A program made the translations under genes and the position numbers. Below are positions 15,502 to 25,893 of a stretch of 64,000 nt of DNA, piece after piece. The stretch spans positions 25,286 through 89,285 of the forward strand of contig WRMB01000006.1 of NCBI GenBank assembly GCA_009777345.1, written 5' to 3'. The notes beneath the pieces are model-generated. The model made no database searches, was not told the DNA's origin, and saw only the letters and a program-made list of their open reading frames with translations. How positions within the stretch are numbered: position 1 is the stretch's first letter; the number at the start of each line of letters is the position of its first letter. This DNA comes from Micrococcales bacterium (lineage in GTDB: Bacteria; Actinomycetota; Actinomycetes; Actinomycetales; Cellulomonadaceae).

Positions 15502-16663
15502 ACCGTTGCGCGTCCTGCTGGCCGGTGGCGGAACCGCCGGGCACGTCAACCCGCTGCTCGCGCTGGCCGCCGAGCTGCGGTCGCGGCACGACGACGCGCA
15601 GATCGTCGTGCTGGGCACCGCCGAGGGGCTGGAGGCCCGGCTGGTCCCCGCCGCCGGGTTCGAGCTGGCCCAGGTGCCCCGGGCGCCGCTGCCCCGGCGG
15701 CCGTCGCTGGACCTGGTCCGGCTGCCGGGACGGCTGCGCCAGGCGGTGGCCGCCGCGGAACGGGCGATCGACGACGTCGGTGCACAGGTCGTCGTCGGGT
15801 TCGGCGGGTACGTCGCGACCCCGGCCTACCTGGCGGCGGGGCGGGCGTCGGTGCCGGTCGTCGTGCACGAGCAGAACGCCCGGCCCGGGCTGGCCAACCG
15901 GCTGGGCGCCCGCCGGGCTGTCGGGGTGGCGGTGACGTTCCCCGGTACCCCGCTGCCACGGAGCACGGTGACCGGGCTGCCCCTGCGGGCCGCGCTGGCC
16001 GGGCTGGTCGCCGACCTCGATACCGACCGTGAGGGCACCCGTCGCCACGCCGCGCGGGAGCTCGGGCTGTCGCCGGACACCACGACGTTGCTGGTCACCG
16101 GTGGTTCGCTGGGGGCGCTGTCGCTCAACCAGAAGGTCGTCGGCGCGGCCCGGGAGGTGCTGGCCACCGGTGCCCAGGTGCTGCACCTGACCGGCAAGGG
16201 CAAGGCCGACGCCGTGCGCGAAGAACTGGCGAAGACGCTCGGCAGCCCGGCGGACCGGGCGAGCCGCTGGCAGGTCCGCGAGTACCTCGACGATATGCAC
16301 CTGGCGCTGGCCGTGGCCGACCTGGTGGTCTGCCGGGCCGGGGCCGGGACGGTCTGCGAGATGGCCGCGCTCGGCATCCCAGCGGTGTACGTACCGCTGC
16401 CGGTGGGCAACGGCGAGCAGCGGCGCAACGCCCGGGACGTCGTCGCCGCGGGCGGCGGCCTGCTGGTGGACGACAAGGACCTGTCCGTTGCCTGGGTGCG
16501 TGAGCGCGTCCCACCGCTGCTGGGCGCCGACGGTGCCGCCGAGCGGACGCGGATGGGCCAGGCGGCGGCGTCGGTCGGGGTGCGCGACGGCGCGGCCCGC
16601 CTGGCCGACCTGGTCGAGACCCACGCAGCACCCCCGAGCCCACCCCGAGACGAGGCACCGTGA
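15494..16663 (+). CDS. murG: Lipid II GlcNAc transferase MurG
   Basis: GGGTAGHVNP, GFGGY, HEQNA, TGGSLGA, RAGAGT. Confidence 0.96.
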   Translation: MAEPLRVLLAGGGTAGHVNPLLALAAELRSRHDDAQIVVLGTAEGLEARLVPAAGFELAQVPRAPLPRRPSLDLVRLPGRLRQAVAAAERAIDDVGAQVVVGFGGYVATPAYLAAGRASVPVVVHEQNARPGLANRLGARRAVGVAVTFPGTPLPRSTVTGLPLRAALAGLVADLDTDREGTRRHAARELGLSPDTTTLLVTGGSLGALSLNQKVVGAAREVLATGAQVLHLTGKGKADAVREELAKTLGSPADRASRWQVREYLDDMHLALAVADLVVCRAGAGTVCEMAALGIPAVYVPLPVGNGEQRRNARDVVAAGGGLLVDDKDLSVAWVRERVPPLLGADGAAERTRMGQAAASVGVRDGAARLADLVETHAAPPSPPRDEAP

Positions 16664-18192
16664 CAGGACCCGACAGCCTGACGAACTCCGGCCCCGCCGA
16701 TCCGGTCGCGGCGCTGGGCCGGGTCCACCTGGTCGGGGTGGGCGGGGTCGGCATGTCCGCGATCGCGACGCTGCTGGCCGCGCGGGGTGCGAGCGTGTCT
16801 GGCTCCGACGCCCACGACGGCCCGGCGCTGGCCGCGCTGCGTGCCGCCGGGGTGGACGTGCGGGTGGGGCACGACGCGGCGGCCGTCGCCGGGGCCGACA
16901 CCGTCGTGGTGTCGTCCGCGGTGCGCGAGACCAACCCCGAGCTGGCGGCGGCCCGGGCCCAGGGGCGGCGGGTGCTGCACCGGTCCCAGGCGCTGGCCGC
17001 GCTGATGGCCGGACGCACCAGCATCGCCGTGGCCGGGGCGCACGGCAAGACGACGACCTCGGCGATGATCGCCGTGGGTCTGCTGCACGCCGGGGCGGAC
17101 CCGTCGTTCGCCATCGGCGGGGTGGTCCGGGACGACACCGGCCCCTTGGGGGGAGCCCGCGACGGGTCCGGACCGTTCGTGGCCGAGGCCGACGAGTCGG
17201 ACGGCTCGTTCCTGGCCTACACCCCGCAGGTCGCCGTGGTCACCAACGTCGAGCCGGACCACCTGGACCACTACGGCACCGCCGAGGCCTTCGAGCAGGC
17301 CTTCGTCGACTTTGCCGGTCGGATCACCGACCCGGTGCGGCTGCTCGTCTGGTGCGCTGACGACCCCGGTGCGGCGCGCCTGAACGCTGCCCTGAGTCGA
17401 GCGCGGCGCGTCGACGGCGCCGTTCCAGGGCCCTGGACGATCGCCTACGGTGCCGGTCAGGCTGGTACCTGGGACCGCCCGCCGTCCGGTGCTGATATCA
17501 CCGTCGGCCCCGTCGAACCCGACGACGACGGCTGGTCGGTCCGGCTGACCGACCTGGCTGGACGTTTCGGCTGGCCGCCGCTGCCAGACGGCCACGACGG
17601 CTCGGCCGACAGCGCGACGGTCCGGGTGCGGCTGCCCGCCCCTGGTGACCACAACGCCCTGAACGCGGCTGCGGCGTGGGCGGTGCTGTGCGCCCTGGGG
17701 ACCGAACCGCAGGCCGCCGCCGCGGCCCTGAGCCGTTTCCGTGGTACCGGACGCCGTTTCGAGGACCGCGGCACCGCCGCGGGGGTGCGGGTGGTGGACG
17801 ACTACGCCCACCACCCCACCGAGGTCGCGGCGCTGCTGCGCGCCGCCCGGGCGGTGGCCGGTACGGGCCGGGTGCTGGTGCTGTTCCAGCCCCACCTGTT
17901 CTCCCGGACCAAGCAGTTCGCCACCGAGTTCGGCCAGGCGCTGGACCTGGCCGACACCGTCGTGGTCACCGCGGTGTACGCCGCCCGCGAAGACCCGGAC
18001 CCGCTGGTCAGCGGGCAGATGCTGGTCGACGCGGTGCCGACCGCCGACAAGGCCGACTACGTCGCCGACCGCGCGCAGGCCGCGCACACCATCGCGGCCG
18101 CGGCCCGCCCCGGCGACCTGGTCCTGACCGTAGGCGCTGGCGACGTCACCGAGCTGGGCCCAGTGATCCTGGCCGACCTGGCCCGCCGGTGA
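16660..18192 (+). CDS. murC: UDP-MurNAc:L-Ala ligase MurC
   Basis: HLVGVGGVGMS, AGAHGKTTT, EADESDGSF, NVEPDHLD, DDYAHHPTE, FQPHLFSRT. Confidence 0.96.
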   Translation: MTGPDSLTNSGPADPVAALGRVHLVGVGGVGMSAIATLLAARGASVSGSDAHDGPALAALRAAGVDVRVGHDAAAVAGADTVVVSSAVRETNPELAAARAQGRRVLHRSQALAALMAGRTSIAVAGAHGKTTTSAMIAVGLLHAGADPSFAIGGVVRDDTGPLGGARDGSGPFVAEADESDGSFLAYTPQVAVVTNVEPDHLDHYGTAEAFEQAFVDFAGRITDPVRLLVWCADDPGAARLNAALSRARRVDGAVPGPWTIAYGAGQAGTWDRPPSGADITVGPVEPDDDGWSVRLTDLAGRFGWPPLPDGHDGSADSATVRVRLPAPGDHNALNAAAAWAVLCALGTEPQAAAAALSRFRGTGRRFEDRGTAAGVRVVDDYAHHPTEVAALLRAARAVAGTGRVLVLFQPHLFSRTKQFATEFGQALDLADTVVVTAVYAAREDPDPLVSGQMLVDAVPTADKADYVADRAQAAHTIAAAARPGDLVLTVGAGDVTELGPVILADLARR

Positions 18193-18322: not shown

Positions 18323-19255
18323 GTGAGTCCGGCCCGCCCGCCCCGGCCGCGGCGCACCACGGCGCGTTCGGGGCCGGTCACGCCCAGCAAGACGTCGGCC
18401 AAGACGCCCAGGGTGAAGCCGTCCAGACCGGCGAAACCGGCCCGGGGTGAGGTCGTCCAGACGCCTGGGGCGGGGCCGCCGAGCATCGCCCCGCGCGACC
18501 GGGTGGTGGTGGAGCAGGCCGCGCAGCGGTTCGCCGAACGGGCCCAGGCCCGCAGGCGGGTCACGCGGCGCAAGGTGGCGACGGTCGTGGCCGTCGTCCT
18601 GGGGGTCGTCGTGCTGGGCTGGGCTGCGTTCTTCTCGCCGGTGCTGGGGCTGGACACCGACCAGGTCGATATCGTCGGTGACGGTGGCACAGCGTTGACG
18701 GACGACATCGTGGCGGTGGACGACGTGCGCGCCGTGGTCGTCCGGCACGTTGGCGAGCCGCTGCCCCGGCTGGACACGGCCGCGCTGCGCACCGAGCTGC
18801 TGGTGGTGCACGGTGTCAAGGACGTGCACGTCGTCCGCGACTGGCCGCGCGGGCTGACGGTGACCGTGACCCCGCGCGTACCGGTCGCCGCGGTTCCGGT
18901 GGACGACCAGGTGGCGCTGCTCGACGCCGACGGTGTGAGGCTGCGCACCGAACCGGTGGCCCCGGAGGGACTGCCGGTGGTCCAGGTGCCGCTCGACGAC
19001 ACCCGGGCGCTGCTGGCCGCGCTGACCGTGGTGGACGCCCTGCCGCCGGACCAGGCGAGCCAGGTGGCGACGGTGGCGGCGCCCACCCAGGACACGGTGA
19101 CCCTGACCCTGGCCGACGGGGTCCAGGTGCTGTGGGGGAGCGCGGAGGACAGCACGCTCAAGGCTCAGGTGGTGGCGACGCTGCGCGCCGACCAGACTCT
19201 TGCCGATGTGACGACGATCGACGTCTCGGCCCCCCAGATGCCGGTGCTGCGCTGA
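18323..19255 (+). CDS. ftsQ: Cell division protein FtsQ/DivIB
   Basis: Basic N-terminus, TM helix, POTRA-like region (VHVVRDWPRGLTVTVTPRVPVA), C-terminal VLWGS...IDVSAP. Position between murC and ftsZ. Confidence 0.88.
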   Translation: MSPARPPRPRRTTARSGPVTPSKTSAKTPRVKPSRPAKPARGEVVQTPGAGPPSIAPRDRVVVEQAAQRFAERAQARRRVTRRKVATVVAVVLGVVVLGWAAFFSPVLGLDTDQVDIVGDGGTALTDDIVAVDDVRAVVVRHVGEPLPRLDTAALRTELLVVHGVKDVHVVRDWPRGLTVTVTPRVPVAAVPVDDQVALLDADGVRLRTEPVAPEGLPVVQVPLDDTRALLAALTVVDALPPDQASQVATVAAPTQDTVTLTLADGVQVLWGSAEDSTLKAQVVATLRADQTLADVTTIDVSAPQMPVLR

Positions 19256-19327: not shown

Positions 19328-19411
19328 TTGCCCACGGCCCGGCGGACACTTAGCGTCGTCGGACGCAAGGCACCTGACATAACTATAACCCTCAACGTGA
19401 AGGTGAGGGTT
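19328..19411 (+). promoter_or_regulatory. ftsZ promoter and downstream palindromic operator
   Basis: TTGCCC(19328)-N17-TAGCGT(19351). Inverted repeat AACCCTCA-N9-TGAGGGTT at 19387-19411. Confidence 0.6.
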
Positions 19412-19456
19412 TTACCGGCCCAGCCCCTGAGCGATCCTGAACGAGAGGCACCCACT

Positions 19457-20692
19457 GTGGCAGCTCCGCAGAACTACCTGGCGGTCATCAAGGTCGTCGG
19501 CATCGGCGGCGGCGGCGTCAACGCCGTCAACCGGATGATCGAGGTCGGGCTCAAGGGCGTCGAGTTCATCGCCATCAACACCGACGCCCAGGCGCTGCTC
19601 ATGTCGGACGCCGACGTCAAGCTCGACGTCGGCCGCGAGCTGACCCGGGGGCTGGGCGCGGGCGCCGACCCCGAGGTCGGCCGCAAGGCCGCCGACGACC
19701 ACGCCGAGGAGATCGAGGACGTCCTGCGCGGTGCGGACATGGTGTTCGTCACCGCGGGCGAGGGCGGCGGCACCGGCACCGGCGGCGCGCCGGTGGTGGC
19801 CCGGATCGCCCGGTCGCTGGGCGCCCTGACCATCGGTGTGGTCACCCGTCCGTTCACCTTCGAGGGCCGCCGTCGCTCGGTGCAGGCCGACTCGGGCATC
19901 GAGGCGCTGCGGGCCGAGGTCGACACCCTGATCGTCATCCCCAACGACCGGCTGCTGTCGATCTCCGACCGCGGGGTCAGCGTGCTGGACGCCTTCCGGT
20001 CCGCCGACCAGGTGCTGCTGTCCGGTGTCCAGGGCATCACCGACCTCATCACCACGCCGGGCCTGATCAACCTGGACTTCGCGGACGTCAAGTCGGTCAT
20101 GCAGGGTGCCGGGTCGGCGCTCATGGGCATCGGCTACGCCCGCGGCGACGACCGGGCCGTGCAGGCCGCGGAGATGGCGATCAGCTCGCCGCTGCTGGAG
20201 GCCAGCATCGACGGGGCGCACGGGGTGCTGCTGTCCATCCAGGGTGGGTCGGACCTGGGTCTGTTCGAGATCAACGAGGCCGCCCGGCTGGTCCAGGAGG
20301 CCGCGCACGCCGAGGCCAACATCATCTTCGGTGCCGTCATCGACGACGCCCTGGGCGACGAGGTGCGGGTCACCGTCATCGCCGCCGGGTTCGACGGCGG
20401 TTCGCCGCAGGTGCGGCGCGACTCCCGGGCCCTGGGCCAGGTGTCCGGTTCCAGCGGTCGTCCCGTGCCGCGGCCGGTGGTGGAGACCGAGCCGTCCGGA
20501 CCGACCCCGGTCACGCCCCGGCACGCGGCCCCGGCCGCGGGACTGGAGAGGGAAGCGCCGCAGGTACCGGCCTTCCTGTCCGCCGAGGCCGACCCGGCGC
20601 CGATCACCGGGTCGCTGGAGGTGCCGCGGGTGTTCACCGACGAGGTCGGCGTGGTGCGCGAAGAGCTCGACGTGCCGGACTTCCTCAAGTGA
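19457..20692 (+). CDS. ftsZ: Cell division protein FtsZ
   Basis: [34 protein letters not shown] tubulin signature, [10 protein letters not shown]-terminal ELDVPDFLK. Confidence 0.99.
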
Positions 20693-20711: not shown

Positions 20712-21515
20712 GTGAAGGAGCTCGTCGCGGCGGTCGACCTGGGTCCGGGTGTCCGGGCCGGGTTCACCACACGGTCAGGTGGCGTCTCCGCGCCGCCGTG
20801 GGACTCGCTGAACCTCGCCGGGCACGTCGGTGACGACCCGGCCGCCGTCGCCGCCAACCGGGACGCGGTCGCCGCCTGGCTGGGCGTCCCGGTGGCCTAT
20901 GCCACCCAGGTGCACGGTGCGCACGTGCGGTGCGTCGCCGGGCCGCCGCCGCCGGGCACGCTGTCGGTCGGCGAGGCCGACGCCCTGGTCACCACCAGCA
21001 CTCAGGTCGGCCTGGGGGTGCTGGTGGCCGACTGTGCGCCGGTGCTGCTGGCCGACCCCCAGGCCGGGGTGGTGGCTGCCGCCCACGCCGGGCGGCCCGG
21101 CCTGGTCGCGGGCGTCGTGCAGGCCACGGTGGCCGCGATGCGCGACCTGGGTGCCCAGGTCGACCGCGTCGTGGCCGTGGTCGGTCCGTGCGTCGCGGGC
21201 CGTTCCTACGAGGTTCCCGCCTCGCTGCGCGACGACGTGGCCGCGGCCGTACCGGGCACCGGGTGCGTCACGGACTGGGGTACTCCCGGGGTGGACGTCG
21301 CCGCCGGGGTGCGAGGCGTCCTGGCTGGTCTGGGCGTGCGCCGGGTCGAGGTGGTCGGCACCGACACCTACCACGAGGGGTCGTTGTTCTCGTACCGGCG
21401 CGACGGTCCGGTGACCGGTCGGTTCGCCGGGCTGGTCCGCCTGCTGGGCCCGGGCGCCCTAGGGGGCTCCCCACCGTCACGCTTACGTGGCACAATCGCT
21501 GCCACCATGCCTTGA
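20712..21515 (+). CDS. pgeF: Peptidoglycan editing factor PgeF / YfiH (DUF152)
   Basis: FTTRSGGVS, LNLAGHVGD, QVHG, DALVT, LVADCAPVLL, AHAGR, SYRR, GRFAG. Directly after ftsZ. Confidence 0.9.
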   Translation: MKELVAAVDLGPGVRAGFTTRSGGVSAPPWDSLNLAGHVGDDPAAVAANRDAVAAWLGVPVAYATQVHGAHVRCVAGPPPPGTLSVGEADALVTTSTQVGLGVLVADCAPVLLADPQAGVVAAAHAGRPGLVAGVVQATVAAMRDLGAQVDRVVAVVGPCVAGRSYEVPASLRDDVAAAVPGTGCVTDWGTPGVDVAAGVRGVLAGLGVRRVEVVGTDTYHEGSLFSYRRDGPVTGRFAGLVRLLGPGALGGSPPSRLRGTIAATMP

Positions 21516-21588
21516 CTGCTGGCCACCTGTTCGGCCGACGACCGAGGTCCTGAGACAGTGTGACGAGCCGGACGTTATCCTGACCTGG

Positions 21589-23493
21589 ATGGTGATGGAC
21601 TGTATGAGCCTGCAGGTGGCCGACCTGGCTCCGGTTGTCGCGGTGCGACGGTTCGTCGACGGGACCTTGGTCTCAGGCATCTTCGAGCAGATGCTGCGTA
21701 CCGACGGTGCCCTCAAGGCGTACCTGTCGACCAAGGACGCGCCGCCCAGCGTCGGCGGCCCCTTGCTGACCTATCTGCGCGAGCTGGACTGGCTGCAGCC
21801 CAAGGACGTGCTGGAGGCCCAGCGCGTGCTCGTCAGGCTGCTGATCGCCGTCGGCGAGGACGTCGCGCCGACCGACCGCTACGAACGTCGCGCCCGCCTG
21901 TTCGACCAGCAGCTCATGCTGTGGTCCAGGGTGCAGCCGACCTGGCTCTCCATCCCCGCCACCTATTTCGCCACGCTGCTCGAGGAGTGCGAGCAGATGC
22001 CCGAGGACTCGCTCGAGAAGGCCATGAAGGCCAAGGTGAGATCTCTCTTCCGGTACCGGACCAGGCCCCCGGTCTGGTTGCACGACGAGACCTGGCCGGT
22101 GAACGCCAACGGCCCGCTGACCTTTGTCGAGCAGATCGACATCTCAGGGCCCTACGACACGTCGTACCGCTATGTGTTCCGCGACGAGACGAGCCACGAG
22201 AGGTACGAGCTGGCGCAGTCGACGGCCCGCTTCGAGCCGACGAGCAGCCCGTTGCCGGCCAGCGCCGCCATGGGGTCTGCGGCCAGCCTGGACCCGCTGG
22301 TGCCCGCCTCCGACGACGACGAACCGGTGCCGATGTCGGTGCTGGAGGCCCTGGCCGAGGCACTGGCGGGCCTCGACGACGAGCTGGACGGCGGTCTGCC
22401 CACGATCGATCCTGGGCCGCAGACCGATCCGATCCCGACCGTCCAGCAGCCGACGCAAGAGATGCCGTCGCCCGTGCAGCCCTGGGTCGACCCGGTGGCG
22501 CTGGGGGCCGACGACCCCACCAAGCCGGTCGTCCCGCCCCCGACCCGGTGGGGGCTGGAGCTGGACGACGGGCGCCGGGTCGAGCTCTGGTCGAGCTCGA
22601 TCGTCCTGGGACGCGAGCCGCAGGTGTCCGGCTCCGCCGTCCAGGGACTGACCGTCACCAGCGACGACCCGTCGACCCTGCTGAACACCCACGCCCGTCT
22701 CGACCTGATCGACGGGGTCTGGTGGGTCACCAACCTCAGCGCAGACGGTGGGGTGGAGGTCGTCGGTGCCAGAGGCAGTCACATAGCGGTCCCAGCGGGC
22801 CGGTCGGTACCGGTACGTACCCACCTCGGTCTCGGTCCGGTCGAGGCGCAGATCGTGCCCCTGCCCGGCCTCGGCCCGGCGCGGCCACCCCTGGGTGCGG
22901 CCGACCCGGACCCGGCCGACCCGGTCGACCCGGACCCGGTCGACGAGAGCACGGAGGAGCCGGTCAAGCGTTCTGGTCTCCGCGCCCGGCCGACGAGGCG
23001 CACCGCCTCGCTGCCGGTCGCGGCGAAGCCCTCGGCGGAGCCGCAGCCGACGACCGATCCCTGGGCCCCCCGGCCAGCACCCCCGCTGACCGCCAGGGTT
23101 CCGTCCGACGACGACCTGGAGGTGACCGTCGAGACCGACCCGTCGGCCTTCGAGCGGTGGACCCTGTCCCTCGGCGACGGCCGGGCCTTCGTGGTCCGGG
23201 CGCCGTCGGTGGTCGTCGGACGGCGTCCGTCGGTGTCGGCACCGGGCATGCAGGCCCTGGCGGTGGCCGACGCGACCCGCACCCTGTCGCGCACGCACGC
23301 TCGGCTCGACCTGGTCGAGGGCGTCTGGCGGGTCACCGACCTGGGGTCGACCAACGGCGTCGTCGTCACCGACGTCGACGGCAAGGAGGCGACGGCCGCA
23401 CCGGGCAGCCCGACCCCGGTGTACGGGTATGTCGCGTTCGGCTCGGTCGAGGCGAGGCTGGTCTCCGGACCGTCGGGACTGGGTGGTTCCTGA
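21589..23493 (+). CDS. Unknown N-terminal domain + Pro/acidic linker + two FHA domains
   Basis: FHA2 has G-R (VVVGRRP), SRTH and STNG. FHA1 is a degenerate copy (LGREP, LNTH, SADG). The roughly 210-aa N-terminal domain ends in PPVWLHDETWPVNANGPLTFVEQID...YVFRD. Start uncertain (21487 GTG, 21589 or 21604 ATG). Confidence 0.75.
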   Translation: MVMDCMSLQVADLAPVVAVRRFVDGTLVSGIFEQMLRTDGALKAYLSTKDAPPSVGGPLLTYLRELDWLQPKDVLEAQRVLVRLLIAVGEDVAPTDRYERRARLFDQQLMLWSRVQPTWLSIPATYFATLLEECEQMPEDSLEKAMKAKVRSLFRYRTRPPVWLHDETWPVNANGPLTFVEQIDISGPYDTSYRYVFRDETSHERYELAQSTARFEPTSSPLPASAAMGSAASLDPLVPASDDDEPVPMSVLEALAEALAGLDDELDGGLPTIDPGPQTDPIPTVQQPTQEMPSPVQPWVDPVALGADDPTKPVVPPPTRWGLELDDGRRVELWSSSIVLGREPQVSGSAVQGLTVTSDDPSTLLNTHARLDLIDGVWWVTNLSADGGVEVVGARGSHIAVPAGRSVPVRTHLGLGPVEAQIVPLPGLGPARPPLGAADPDPADPVDPDPVDESTEEPVKRSGLRARPTRRTASLPVAAKPSAEPQPTTDPWAPRPAPPLTARVPSDDDLEVTVETDPSAFERWTLSLGDGRAFVVRAPSVVVGRRPSVSAPGMQALAVADATRTLSRTHARLDLVEGVWRVTDLGSTNGVVVTDVDGKEATAAPGSPTPVYGYVAFGSVEARLVSGPSGLGGS

Positions 23494-23714
23494 CCGGATA
23501 CCGTCCGGCGGGGCTTTCCTGGTGATCTGTCGCATATGCCCCAGATGCTGCTGTTCATGGCAATCGGGTGCCGACCTGTGAAGGACCGGCGTGCCGGGCG
23601 TGTCGCGACCGCCCTCGTCGTAGCGGTTGCTAGCGTGAGGCGTGGTAGGACGAGAAGGCGGCGTTACCACGCCGCGGAGTCAGTCCCGGGACCACCGGGG
23701 GACGGAGTAGAGCG

Positions 23715-24170
23715 ATGGCCGGTGCGCTGCGCAAGACGATGCTGTACCTGGGCCTGGCCGACGCCCGGCCCGAGGACGAGGACTACCTCGACGAGGAGTA
23801 CCCGATGGACGAGCCTGACGCGCAGGTGACGCCGCTGCGCCGCCCGGTCCGGGTGGCCCCGGACCTCGACGACGGACTGGGTGAGGTTCGCCGGATCACC
23901 ACGATTCACCCGCGGTCGTACAACGACGCCCGCCGGATCGGTGAGGCGTTCCGCGACGGTACCCCGGTGATCATCAACCTCACGGACATGGACGACGGGG
24001 ACGCCAAGCGTCTGGTCGACTTCTCCGCCGGCCTGATCTTCGGGCTGCGCGGGGCGATCGAGCGGGTGACTTCCAAGGTCTTCCTGCTGTCCCCGGCCAA
24101 CGTCGAGATCAGCTCCGGCCCGCGGACCGACGAGGTCGCGGTGCGCGCCGGCTTCTTCAACCAGAGCTGA
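23715..24170 (+). CDS. sepF: Cell division protein SepF
   Basis: [54 protein letters not shown]. Confidence 0.96.
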
Positions 24171-24171
24171 C

Positions 24172-24465
24172 GTGAACATCGTCTTCTCGCTGCTGTACGT
24201 GGTCACGCTGGTCTACGTGCTGATCATGTTCATGCGCCTGATCCTGGACTGGGTGCAGGTCTTCTCCCGCCAGTGGCGCCCGACGGGTCCGCTGCTCGTC
24301 GTCGCCGAGGTCGTGTACACGGCGACCGACCCGCCGCTGAAGGCGCTGCGCAAGGTGCTGCCGCCGATAGGGTTCGGCCAGATCCGGTTCGACCTGGCCT
24401 TCCTGGTGCTGATGCTGGGCTGCTTCGTCCTGCTCAACGTCTTCGCGTGGCTGGCGCGGCCCTGA
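24172..24465 (+). CDS. yggT: YggT family membrane protein
   Basis: Hydrophobic protein with TATDPPLKALRKVLPP...FDLAFLV; follows sepF. Confidence 0.9.
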   Translation: MNIVFSLLYVVTLVYVLIMFMRLILDWVQVFSRQWRPTGPLLVVAEVVYTATDPPLKALRKVLPPIGFGQIRFDLAFLVLMLGCFVLLNVFAWLARP

Positions 24466-24683: not shown

Positions 24684-25334
24684 ATGGCTCTGCTGACCGC
24701 AGACGACGTCCTGAACAAGAAGTTCCAGTCGACGAAGTTCCGCGAGGGCTACGACCAGGACGAGGTTGACGACTTCCTCGACGAGGTCGTCGCCACCCTG
24801 CGCGAGGTGCACGGCGGCGGCGGAGGTGACTCCGGCCCGGCCGTGCACGCGCTGCAGGCCGAGAACGAGGACCTGACGGTCCGGCTCGCCAACGCCGAAC
24901 GGCGGATCAACGAGCTGGAGTCCGCGGTGGAGTCCGGCGGCCGCTTCGGCTTCAGCCCGTCGACCCCGGCTGTGGAGTCGGCGCTGCGCGGCGGCGGCGA
25001 CGACACGGCACCGGAGTCGGCGCAGGGGCTGCTCGCGATGGCCCAGAAGGTCCACGACGACTACGTCACCTCCGGCAAGCAGGAGGGTGACCGGCTGGTC
25101 GCCGAGGCCCGGGTCCGGGCCGACCAGATCGTCAGCGAGGCCGAAGAGAGCTCCCAGCGCACCCTCGGTCAGCTCGAGCAGGAACGGTCGCTGCTGGAGC
25201 GCAAGATCGACGAGCTGCGGGTCTTCGAGCGCGACTACCGCACCCGCCTGAAGAGCTATCTGGAGAACCTGCTGGGCGACCTCGACTCGCGCGGCAGCGC
25301 TCTGCCTGCCGGTTCCGAGAGCCGCAGCCTGTAG
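24684..25334 (+). CDS. divIVA: Polar growth protein DivIVA/Wag31
   Basis: LTADDVLNKKF...REGYDQDEVDDFLD, coiled coils, FERDYRTRLKSYLE. Confidence 0.95.
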   Translation: MALLTADDVLNKKFQSTKFREGYDQDEVDDFLDEVVATLREVHGGGGGDSGPAVHALQAENEDLTVRLANAERRINELESAVESGGRFGFSPSTPAVESALRGGGDDTAPESAQGLLAMAQKVHDDYVTSGKQEGDRLVAEARVRADQIVSEAEESSQRTLGQLEQERSLLERKIDELRVFERDYRTRLKSYLENLLGDLDSRGSALPAGSESRSL

Positions 25335-25344
25335 CCTGCTCGGC

Positions 25345-25396
25345 ACGACAAGGTCCCGCCGCGTGGGTCACCCACCTACCGGCGGGACCTTGTCGT
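25345..25396 (+). terminator. Strong hairpin after divIVA (likely intrinsic terminator)
   Basis: Perfect 17-bp inverted repeat ACGACAAGGTCCCGCCG/CGGCGGGACCTTGTCGT enclosing an inner GTGGG-TCA-CCCAC hairpin. Confidence 0.7.
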
Positions 25397-25479
25397 CGGT
25401 CCGTCTTGCCGCGTGTCGGGTTGTTCCGCGCGATCAGGCCGCATACAGTCGCGGGACTTCGAGCAAGGGAGCCCCCATC

Positions 25480-25893
25480 ATGTCTGATGCGCCTGGGATG
25501 GCGACCTTCCCCGTCCGTGACGGTGAAGACCCCTGGAGCCCGGCCGAGGTGGAGGGCTTGACCACGGACCTGCAGGCCGAGGTGGCCCGCCTGACGGCCG
25601 AGCTCGAGGTCGCCGACGCGGACCTCACCGAGCTGCTGCGCAACTCTGGTGACGGTGCCGGGGACGACCAGGCCGACTCCGGTTCGTCCGCCCTGGAGCG
25701 CGAGCAGGAGCTCACCCTGGTGAACAACACCCGCGACCTGCTGCTGCAGAGCGAACGCGCCCTGGACCGGATCACCGCGGGCACCTACGGGGTGTGCGAG
25801 TCGTGCGGCAACGCCATCGGCAAGGCCCGTCTGCTCGCCTTCCCGCGGGCGCTGCTGTGCGTGGAGTGCAAGCAGCGCGAAGAACGACGCTAG
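25480..25893 (+). CDS. TraR/DksA family zinc-finger protein
   Basis: DDQAD acidic tip, GTYGVCESCGNAIGKARL...LCVECK (C4 finger). Confidence 0.9.
   Translation: MSDAPGMATFPVRDGEDPWSPAEVEGLTTDLQAEVARLTAELEVADADLTELLRNSGDGAGDDQADSGSSALEREQELTLVNNTRDLLLQSERALDRITAGTYGVCESCGNAIGKARLLAFPRALLCVECKQREERR

Follow-up and report, generated by a model that had tools for sequence, protein, structure and literature searches.

FhaA (Rv0020c) of Mycobacterium tuberculosis consists of a globular N-terminal domain, a disordered linker of ~100-300 aa and a canonical C-terminal FHA domain, and acts on the cell-envelope and division machinery by binding phosphothreonine (pThr) made by kinases. FhaB/FipA (Rv0019c), a membrane protein of ~155 aa, reportedly forms a phospho-dependent bridge between FtsZ and FtsQ. 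In the ABC transporter Rv1747, two FHA domains are joined by a disordered linker, and FHA-2 is the more divergent of the two. [quoted passage not shown] The Esr loci also contain genes for MoxR, vWA, kinase/phosphatase and EsrA beta-propeller proteins. Immunity proteins of the Tox-LHH toxins have been described as Imm-SUKH (Zhang et al. 2012, PMC3482391). The TYPP module of YwqG/DUF1963, which is built from two strand-swapped repeats and contains a GGxP motif, has been proposed to mediate protein-protein interactions (Burroughs and Aravind 2014, PMC4275035).

The gene described here was found in a window, by which we mean the whole 64,000-nucleotide stretch of DNA that was analysed. It encodes an N-terminal domain, here called X, and two FHA folds, FHA1 and FHA2. 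Like FhaA, the protein has a globular N-domain, a long disordered linker and a canonical FHA domain at the C-terminus, and FhaA FHA structures (2lc1, 3oun) are among its top fold matches. Unlike FhaA, it has two FHA domains instead of one, and X in place of DUF3662, for which the Pfam search of the protein gave no match. The FhaA gene is located in the pknB/pstP operon and is universal in Actinobacteria, whereas the X-FHA gene is located in the division (dcw) cluster of 4 out of 110 species. The Rv1747 FHA structures 6ccd and 6cah are also among the fold matches, but in our protein it is the N-proximal FHA domain that is degenerate, and the FHA pair is fused to an immunity-type domain rather than to a transporter. 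FhaB/FipA (NF049868) is the closest NCBIfam model to FHA2 (E 1.9e-7), with a score of 31.3 bits against an equivalog cut-off of 125 bits, and the FipA protein lacks an X domain. X is not among the EsrG N-domains named in the available text of PMC13622651, and no Esr-type genes are found beside the X-FHA gene, which has dcw neighbours, or beside its paralogues.

On the immunity side, the stand-alone relatives of X resemble Imm-SUKH proteins in being small, acidic and translationally coupled behind LHH tips, but X is not a SUKH protein and has no significant SMI1_KNR4 match. One TYPP repeat (PxW..WP..PLxFxxQ...YxF) can be aligned with the last ~50 residues of X. In contrast to TYPP, X has only a single repeat-like unit, located behind an eight-helix domain. 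On this single-repeat view, X would be expected to pair with itself as a strand-swapped dimer similar to TYPP.

Gene model and FHA domains

The open frame is unbroken from 21487 to 23493 on the plus strand and encodes a protein of 629 aa (Table 1). The sequence-only reading had started the gene at the ATG at 21589, which is in frame, but the ATG at 21604, 15 nt further on, is the better start. It is preferred because of the Shine-Dalgarno match in front of it (GGTGAT, complementary to the 3' end of 16S rRNA) and because of the orthologue N-termini. MS[LV]Q is the start in the gene calls of 6 of the 7 retrieved orthologues, and sequence conservation also begins there in all 8.

Table 1. Coordinates of the X-FHA gene, its parts and its flanking genes in the window
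Feature	Position	Strand	Description
pgeF (Cu-oxidase_4)	20712..21515	+	PF02578, E 1.7e-65; single start candidate, start approximate
Shine-Dalgarno-like GGTGAT	21591..21596	+	7 nt before ATG 21604; read from sequence
Whole X-FHA gene	21604..23493	+	629 aa plus stop; X, linker, FHA1, linker, FHA2; based on open frame, orthologue N-termini and Shine-Dalgarno match
X domain, aa 5-210	21616..22233	+	eight helices, then three-stranded C-terminal beta unit
Signature PPxW(L)xxxxWP...PLxFxxQxD...YVFxD	22066..22188	+	single TYPP/DUF1963-like repeat
Linker 1, aa 211-312	22234..22539	+	acidic, Pro-rich, predicted disordered; pLDDT below 50
Amphipathic helix PMSVLEALAEALAGLDDELD in linker 1	22330..22389	+	conserved in orthologues
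DDPTKPVV motif	22510..22533	+	immediately N-terminal of FHA1; candidate phospho-acceptor Thr, hydrophobic +3
FHA1, aa 313-422	22540..22869	+	FHA fold, degenerate pThr pocket; pLDDT about 88
Linker 2, aa 423-513	22870..23142	+	Pro-rich, disordered (AlphaFold2 model)
DPWAPR motif in linker 2	23053..23082	+	conserved in part
FHA2, aa 514-623	23143..23472	+	canonical FHA; PF00498; pLDDT about 90
sepF	23715..24170	+	PF04472, E 2e-26

The product is a cytoplasmic three-module scaffold, in which X, FHA1 and FHA2 are connected by long, acidic, Pro-rich disordered linkers. The AlphaFold2 full-length model has the modules in the order read from the sequence, and X is folded in it (pLDDT about 95). AlphaFold2 also gave a pLDDT of 93.7 for X. 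Linker 1 has a net charge of -16, a Pro content of 20% and a dN/dS of 0.44-0.67. Its helix, modelled with low confidence at aa 245-261, retains VPMPVL.ALAEAL..LD in 8/8 orthologues. Conservation of the candidate Thr motifs is not universal among the orthologues. At the DDPTKPVV position, 7 of 8 have Thr, with V, I or M at +3, and the other (P0009) has Ser, with F at +3. Judged from its sequence, this Thr may be a phosphosite.

FHA2 scores 35.7 bits against PF00498 (cut-off 20.7 bits), which is the sole Pfam match in the protein. It has the pThr-contact residues (G539-R540, S562-R563-T564-H565 and S582-T583-N584-G585), and these motifs are kept in the orthologues. By profile score and contact residues, it is thus a member of the FHA family. 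FHA1 has no Pfam match, even at E<=10. It is nevertheless an FHA domain by fold and homology, with an FHA-type beta-sandwich of eleven strands in the AlphaFold2 model and 43-44% identity to FHA2 (tblastn, E 1e-18), but its pThr pocket is not intact. GR is kept, but in 8/8 orthologues LL[N/D]TH replaces S-R-x-H, and S-A-D-G or G-V-D-x replaces S-T-N-G. FHA1 therefore lacks the Ser, Arg, Thr and Asn that contact phosphothreonine, all of which FHA2 retains. The "tandem FHA" of the sequence-only reading is hence a degenerate FHA1 and a canonical FHA2. The top Foldseek matches of the full-length model are FHA structures of OdhI, GarA, FhaA, DgcB and Rv1747.

A search for the same arrangement elsewhere, as the sequence-only reading had proposed, found the X-FHA-FHA architecture in 8 orthologues from independent assemblies, with synteny demonstrated for 5 of them. 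X has a dN/dS ratio of 0.18-0.22, FHA1 one of 0.33-0.59 and FHA2 one of 0.32-0.43. The gene is real and under purifying selection. The orthologue conservation and the dN/dS values rule out that a frameshift has artificially joined two genes.

The X family and its toxin neighbours

X belongs to a family of at least 157 representative clusters (at 50% identity), which includes stand-alone members. All but 4 clusters have sizes of 61-263 aa, mostly 185-210 aa, and lack an FHA part. The family is spread over Proteobacteria, Bacteroidota, Firmicutes, Deinococcota, Planctomycetota and Actinobacteria. The other 4 are FHA fusions, and each of these comes from a metagenome-assembled genome of Micrococcales. 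Fusion to FHA, which the sequence-only reading did not recognise, is thus rare. Scans of X and stand-alone members with Pfam, NCBIfam and PADLOC gave nothing significant, and the family is absent from Pfam and NCBIfam. A profile search of the PDB sequences with the X-family alignment gave no matches, and Foldseek of the X model against the PDB gave nothing under E 0.01. The predicted fold is confident, and it is without a counterpart among solved structures.

The invariant columns of the X-family signature are P, W, W and F, and X of our protein retains every invariant residue of the family. The motif given for the end of the domain by the sequence-only reading is present, as PPVWLHDETWPVNANGPLTFVEQID...YRYVFRDE, although the spacing in its shorthand was slightly wrong. 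The alignments of X and DUF1963 are matched by hhalign with 80% probability (E 1.5e-5), locally and over one repeat only. PF09234 gives weak matches in 6 of 60 X-family members (best E 3.4e-4), over ~50 positions only. X does not qualify as a DUF1963/TYPP member, which would have two repeats, GGxP, the conserved Gln and a score above 23 bits; our protein has no match to the model, and Foldseek of X did not retrieve the YwqG structure 1PV5. The X family has no conserved set of polar residues such as catalytic sites typically have. All sampled stand-alone members are acidic, as is X in our protein.

A tight 16-member alignment as the query found related loci; the Salmonella protein alone gave no relatives. 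X-family genes immediately follow LHH tips with scores over the Pfam cut-off in Pseudomonas and Sphingomonas, with a PAAR-Rhs locus among the latter, and also on a short Methanobacterium-binned contig. In Salmonella, an orphan Rhs tip ahead of an X-family gene has the same motif and scores below the cut-off. In Firmicutes, X-family genes are located behind PT-HINT toxins. Other members adjoin Imm70, Tdi1-like, SUKH-like and Barstar genes in immunity-gene arrays. Altogether, a toxin tip is immediately upstream of a stand-alone X homologue at 12 loci or more. The description of X as an immunity-like, complete stand-alone protein fits these ~200-aa homologues, which occur behind Tox-LHH Rhs/PT-HINT tips or in immunity arrays. 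Judging from such neighbourhoods, the X family is likely to comprise the cognate immunity proteins of Tox-LHH (HNH/EndoVII-fold) DNase toxins. The Tox-REHH/RehhI system was considered as a match and rejected, as both its toxin and its immunity families are different. The analysis thus defines a widespread ~200-aa family that is new to Pfam and NCBIfam and likely to provide immunity to Tox-LHH.

In our genome, the gene upstream of the X-FHA gene is pgeF and not a toxin tip. The tblastn search with two LHH tips and the search with the PF14411 profile did not identify an LHH toxin in this genome, and G000 and G006 yielded no LHH domain. X is the most constrained module of the protein (dN/dS about 0.2) and may therefore have kept an ordinary immunity function. 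The gene could then be an orphan that neutralises the LHH-type DNase toxins of competitors, with the FHA part tuning abundance, location or activity, and with the pgeF-sepF gap as a merely permissive, constitutively transcribed insertion site. We regard this combination as rather unlikely. It would agree with the constraint on X, the retention of its invariant residues and acidity, and the frequency of cognate-less genes in the family, as no toxin immediately precedes the gene at 45 of 55 X-family loci. The window also contains a decayed RHS toxin/immunity array, which indicates that the organism engages in toxin conflicts. However, stand-alone X members need no extra domains, and simple immunity does not explain why the FHA domains are under selection and the linker motifs conserved. 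The fused X domains form a single clade (100/100 support), and the length of its branch, 0.74 substitutions per site, suggests a changed function. Moreover, no entry of Gram-negative Rhs/T6SS-delivered LHH toxins into actinobacteria is known.

Insertion into the division cluster and possible function

Upstream of the X-FHA gene are murC, ftsQ, ftsZ and pgeF, and downstream are sepF, yggT, divIVA and a dksA-type zinc-finger gene. The neighbour profiles bear out the placement between ftsZ-pgeF and sepF that had been read from the sequence. The gene is co-oriented with the division genes, 88 bp past pgeF and 222 bp ahead of sepF. A scan for promoters and terminators at the gene found nothing, with an E. 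coli-type consensus that is weak for a high-GC actinobacterium. In view of the shared orientation, the short gaps and the lack of a terminator match, the gene probably shares a transcript with ftsZ-pgeF-sepF-yggT-divIVA, and its site of action would accordingly be the divisome or the cell envelope. The order ftsZ-pgeF-[gene]-sepF is found in the genomes G000, G006, G472 and G496, and also on two contigs from metagenomes. Five further species of the genus have sepF immediately after pgeF. The insertion has not displaced yggS: insert-free relatives also lack yggS at this position, and a yggS-like gene is found elsewhere.

As all FHA-fused X domains fall into one clade, the fusion had a single origin. 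It is present in 5 of the 110 species of the genus, one more than have the division-cluster copy. The carriers are a handful of small-genome Cellulomonas-like species, most of them known only from metagenomes. This narrow distribution limits the generality of the finding, and the "undescribed system" of the sequence-only reading was an overstatement for a single lineage-restricted gene. The older paralogues (P0010, P0011, P0012 and C4 of the same genome) always have an OmpR-type response regulator as a neighbour, in some cases together with a histidine kinase. Their neighbours also include nrf genes and unknown large proteins, but not division genes. P0010 has the architecture X-FHA-X-FHA; by comparison, the dcw copy lacks the second X and the FHA1 pocket. 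The dcw copy was inserted late and derives from an older X-FHA-X-FHA gene beside two-component systems. An immunity domain has thus left its conflict context by a single fusion to FHA, a duplication, and the move of one copy into a conserved division cluster.

These losses and the occurrence in only 4 of 110 species might suggest that the dcw copy is a functionless duplicate that is decaying or neutral. This is very improbable, and was already disfavoured by the dN/dS of X, FHA1 and FHA2, each far under 1. All 8 orthologues, with identities down to 63% overall (77% in the X domain), have an unbroken frame, and even the degenerate FHA1 sequence is conserved (LL[N/D]THARLDL, WWVTN).

We tentatively prefer the view, which falls just short of probable, that the protein is a phosphothreonine-dependent, kinase-controlled adaptor with a co-opted immunity-type binding domain. 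X, an acidic domain taken once from the stand-alone Tox-LHH immunity family, would be the protein-binding part. By analogy with FhaA, EsrG, the Rv1747 module and GarA/OdhI, FHA2 would dock on a Thr that has been phosphorylated by a host Ser/Thr kinase; the genome of 3.3 Mb contains 32 Pkinase matches. The Thr could belong to a partner or to the linker of the protein itself, with DDPTKPVV as a candidate for the latter. X would be positioned or unmasked on docking and might then bind and sequester a ligand, much as an immunity protein does with its toxin. The position of the gene suggests a possible role in division, and a possible link to Pkn kinases, FtsZ, SepF or DivIVA, but the neighbourhoods of the older paralogues speak against this. 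If the adaptor reading is true, Ser/Thr-kinase signalling has recruited an immunity protein as a regulatory binding module.

Alternatively, X could be a bait for a nuclease toxin or another effector, and binding could alter FHA phospho-signalling. The signal would be routed through two-component systems (paralogues) or the divisome (dcw copy) and lead to a division pause or defence. Such a toxin or threat sensor is improbable. The constant association of the four paralogues with OmpR-type response regulators would suit it, and EsrG shows that an actinobacterial FHA protein with a variable N-domain can be the output of a threat-sensing pathway (PMC13622651). A link between nucleases and division is also conceivable, since DNase toxins cause filamentation (bioRxiv 10.64898/2026.09.22.753552). 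However, the case is purely contextual, and MoxR, vWA or EsrA-type genes do not adjoin any copy. Slightly less probable again is an effector-triggered version, in which an incoming nuclease toxin, or a host protein mimicking one, is caught by X. The FHA pair, together with Ser/Thr kinases, would then bring about a division pause in the case of the dcw copy, or a response at the level of transcription in the case of the paralogues beside two-component systems. If true, this would be a bacterial guard or decoy circuit made from an immunity protein.

The lower GC content of the X region could be taken as a hint of recent horizontal transfer. This was rejected, because its GC3 of 0.93 matches that of the neighbouring genes, and the lower GC content thus reflects the amino-acid composition.

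The gene and its product

The gene under study lies inside the division operon, oriented like the surrounding division genes, and no terminator was found near it with a consensus scan, the E. coli-type consensus being weak for a high-GC actinobacterium. The sequence-only reading started it at ATG 21589, which is in frame, but ATG 21604 is the better candidate, judged by a GGTGAT Shine-Dalgarno match 7 nt upstream and by the N-termini of orthologues. Of the seven retrieved orthologues, six have gene calls that open with the motif MS[LV]Q; the conserved part of all eight opens with it too, and in the more distant orthologue from another species of the genus (G006) conservation is absent upstream of it. 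The product has 629 residues, numbered here from ATG 21604.

The search for the same architecture and synteny elsewhere, suggested by the sequence-only reading, was productive. The architecture is common to eight orthologues, seven from independent assemblies or metagenomes and one an open frame read directly from the G006 genome; carriers are mostly metagenome-derived genomes. The order ftsZ-pgeF-gene-sepF-yggT-divIVA was confirmed where checked, on two metagenome contigs and in three further species genomes. An artificial fusion by sequencing frameshift is ruled out by these orthologues and by dN/dS (Nei-Gojobori, window gene versus three orthologues), which is 0.18-0.22 for the N-terminal domain (X), 0.33-0.59 for FHA1, 0.32-0.43 for FHA2 and 0.42-0.80 for the linkers, X being the most constrained segment. 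The protein is thus under purifying selection. The GC content of the X region is below that of its surroundings, but since its GC3 (0.93) equals that of ftsZ, sepF and divIVA, this reflects amino acid composition only.

The full-length AlphaFold2 model contains three folded blocks with two disordered stretches between them. FHA2 is the sole Pfam match in the protein (35.7 bits, cut-off 20.7). FHA1 has none even at E≤10, but shares 43-44% identity with FHA2 (E 1e-18). Foldseek with the whole model finds the FHA structures of OdhI, GarA, FhaA/Rv0020c, Rv1747 FHA-1, DgcB and ArnA (E from 4e-6). In the alignment of the eight orthologues, FHA2 keeps all phosphothreonine contacts (G-R, S-R-T-H, S-T-N-G). 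FHA1 keeps G-R alone, with Ser-Arg changed to Leu-Asn/Asp (LL[N/D]TH) and Thr-Asn to Ala-Asp or similar, both changes being conserved among the orthologues. The tandem FHA domains seen earlier are thus two in number, but only the second is canonical, and the first is degenerate. The linkers are variable in the same alignment, apart from three motifs.

Features of the window, of the window protein (aa) and of contigs of the same genome (C-numbers)
Feature	Position	Remarks
murC	16660-18192	Pfam
ftsQ	18323-19255	Pfam
ftsZ	19328-20692	Pfam
pgeF (Cu-oxidase_4)	about 20712-21515	Pfam; directly before window gene
Uninterrupted frame	21487-23493 (+)	contains window gene
Window gene	21604-23493 (+)	favoured start
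sepF	23715-24170	Pfam; next after window gene
yggT	24172-24465	named from position and length agreement with orthologous loci
divIVA	24684-25334	Pfam
dksA/traR-type zinc-finger gene	25363-25893	Pfam
X	aa 5-210	pLDDT about 95; eight helices, then three-stranded sheet
Linker 1	aa 211-312	pLDDT below 50; net charge -16, 20% Pro
VPMxVLEALAEAL..LD	aa 243-262	conserved motif; amphipathic helix in linker 1
DDPTKPVV		conserved motif immediately N-terminal to FHA1
FHA1	aa 313-422	pLDDT about 88; eleven strands
Linker 2	aa 423-513	pLDDT below 50; Pro-rich
DPWAPR		conserved motif in linker 2
FHA2	aa 514-623	pLDDT about 90; canonical FHA
DUF1963/TYPP gene	C1:55965-56657 (-)	two repeats, YwqG family
FHA-X-FHA paralogue	C4:48460-46289	
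yggS-like gene	C9:60586-61254	PLP-binding
FHA paralogue	C5:26020-27408	
FHA paralogue	C10:58068-59591 (+)	
FHA paralogue	C10:60355-62070 (+)	
FHA paralogue	C14:18844-19872	
FHA paralogues	C24:9649-15867	three genes
FHA paralogue	C28:25773-28562 (-)	

The X family and its stand-alone members

X matches nothing in Pfam, NCBIfam or PADLOC and no sequence in the PDB, and Foldseek of the confident X model (pLDDT 93.7) against the PDB gave nothing below E 0.01. Searched exhaustively with phmmer, 1.84 billion cluster representatives yielded 157 homologues at E≤1e-3. Only the best four are FHA fusions, namely the window protein and three paralogues outside the division cluster (P0010, P0011, P0012). 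The others (61-263 aa, most 185-210 aa) lack the FHA part, are called hypothetical where the source gives a name, and come from Salmonella enterica, Commensalibacter, Deinococcus, Erysipelotrichaceae and proteobacterial metagenome-assembled genomes, among other sources. NCBIfam does not cover these stand-alone members.

P, W, W and F columns are invariant in the family alignment, which shows the signatures QPxWL and PPxWLQxPxWP...PLxFxGQLD...YVFxD and contains no conserved polar set of active-site type. All stand-alone members sampled are acidic (median pI 5.2). X is a putative binding domain of immunity type, non-catalytic and acidic. Its C-terminal residues (about 50) resemble one TYPP/DUF1963 (YwqG) repeat: hhalign of the family against the DUF1963 alignment gives 80% probability and E 1.5e-5 at repeat 1, PF09234 is weakly matched by 6 of 60 members, and an ORF of another actinomycete with two TYPP-like repeats (GGxP) also matched the family profile. 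According to one proposal (PMC4275035), TYPP is a module for protein-protein interaction that consists of a duplicated, strand-swapped unit. As X has only one such unit, dimerisation is conceivable by analogy. The genome of the window also encodes a bona fide two-repeat DUF1963/TYPP protein (166 bits), at a position unrelated to the X-FHA genes.

The context of X was surveyed in one genome per species, with loci located by one conserved peptide pattern. In 7 of the resulting 55 loci (four Pseudomonas, two Sphingomonas, one short contig binned as Methanobacterium), the same LHH tip (Tox-LHH, PF14411, an HNH/EndoVII-fold DNase toxin tip) lies immediately upstream of the X gene, with a gap of -4 to +9 nt; the LHH match was confirmed at 33-36 bits in three of them. 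On a Sphingomonas plasmid, the X gene follows 9 bp after a DcrB-PAAR-Rhs-Rhs-core operon, the tip of which matches Pfam LHH at 38.5 bits (cut-off 23.3). The Salmonella gene starts 10 bp past an orphan Rhs fragment ending ...PLDANGNPYELHHNNPQR...REVTREQHAELDPYRHL, in an array that also holds SMI1_KNR4, WHH, Tox-URI2 and DUF4265 genes. In three Firmicutes loci among the 55, a PT-HINT pretoxin with an ILHHP...QH...IH tip is found upstream. Other members adjoin known immunity genes (Imm70; Tdi1-type and weak SUKH-like; or Barstar), and the remaining loci are orphans.

These toxin-adjacent contexts suggest that X is a previously unnamed putative immunity family for LHH-type HNH/EndoVII DNase toxins. 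The earlier view of the N-terminal domain as immunity-like is borne out, its homologues being stand-alone proteins behind toxin tips or in immunity arrays. The immunity partner of Tox-LHH has been listed as Imm-SUKH (Zhang et al. 2012, PMC3482391); X is a family distinct from Imm-SUKH. It is a new family of polymorphic-toxin immunity proteins, a class already known, and its fold has no solved relative.

The Rhs tip KRWK.GDAIDKP...RSRYWKNR...PLDANGN.MELHHHxPQR...NLREVTREQH..LD..RHL is common to Pseudomonas, Sphingomonas and Salmonella (loci L074, L075, L077, L078, L097, L099, L057, L009-L012), with an X-family gene after it in every case, and the two appear to be a clean, seemingly uncharacterised toxin/immunity pair. 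The Methanobacterium sp. locus (L087), a 2.2-kb contig with a bacterial-type LHH tip and an X-family gene, is probably a mis-binned bacterial contig and not an archaeal toxin system. In many Chryseobacterium species (L070-L073, L079, L084, L090 and others), an orphan X gene lies 90-180 bp after the same gene of about 794 aa, with no toxin upstream, which suggests that an orphan immunity gene has been kept there over a long time.

History of the fusion

The maximum-likelihood tree unites all fused X domains in a single clade (100/100 support), which has a long stem branch and arises from within the stand-alone proteins. P0010 has the layout X-FHA-X-FHA. The X of the window protein clusters with its first X, and that of the FHA-X-FHA paralogue on contig C4 with its second. 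P0010 has two canonical FHA domains, so FHA1 degenerated within the lineage of the division cluster. All copies outside this cluster (P0010, P0011, P0012 and C4) adjoin an OmpR-type response regulator, in some cases together with a histidine kinase. The paralogues P0011 (locus L036) and P0010 (L017) are also flanked by very large proteins without Pfam match (1610, 841, 752+ and 689 aa), and in L036 the start of a 441-aa WD40-like protein overlaps the X-FHA stop; these neighbourhoods may be a larger sensing module.

X is carried by 5 of 110 species genomes of the genus (Cellulomonas according to one source), and a search of 400 other Actinomycetes genomes gave no match. The insertion in the division cluster is present in the genome of the window and in G006, G472 and G496. 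G473 (99% complete) has the X-FHA-X-FHA form only, with pgeF then sepF directly, and four more species of the genus also have sepF directly after pgeF. In other Actinobacteria, yggS often sits between these genes. It is missing there across the genus (window 21516-23714 versus loci L028-L031 and L125), and a yggS-like gene is found elsewhere in the genome of the window. In the most economical history, an immunity gene would have been captured once and fused to FHA, the X-FHA module would have been duplicated in tandem, a copy would have entered the pgeF-sepF interval in one sub-lineage, and the second X would then have been lost and the FHA1 pocket have decayed.

Possible role, and other FHA proteins

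No LHH domain was found in the genome of the window or in G006 (tblastn with two tips; PF14411). The ligand of X would thus be either a foreign toxin, X acting as orphan immunity, or a new endogenous partner, X having been co-opted. Co-option is favoured over orphan immunity because the branch to the fused clade is long, both FHA domains have been retained and linker motifs are conserved. If the protein resembles FhaA, EsrG, GarA/OdhI, DgcB and the Rv1747 regulatory module in its mode of action, FHA2 might read a kinase-written phosphothreonine on a partner or on its own linker; this contact could localise or gate X, which would sequester a protein ligand. We give this adaptor reading of the co-opted protein somewhat less than an even chance. 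The divisome, a candidate site of action, is suggested solely by gene position. The 3.3-Mb genome is rich in Ser/Thr kinases, with 32 Pkinase (PF00069) matches. About 13 of these are partial, covering profile positions of about 100-200 only, and point to a family of pseudokinase or kinase-like domains.

By membership tests, the window protein does not belong to FhaA, FipA, TYPP or EsrG. FHA adaptors with variable N-domains are already known; an immunity-family domain as cargo, combined with the insertion in the division cluster, is new. The term undescribed system, used at first, is too strong for one lineage-restricted gene with paralogues.

The same genome has an expanded set of FHA paralogues, with a C-terminal FHA 40-65% identical to FHA2. 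Three combine an N-terminal DUF5684 membrane domain with a very long Pro-rich repeat linker. TM segments occur in three genes that form a cluster, one of which also has, by eye, an NHL-like repeat region; two paralogues have apparent RDD-like membrane domains, again by eye. The C10 pair adjoins a paralogous RR-HK pair and a partial kinase-like ORF.
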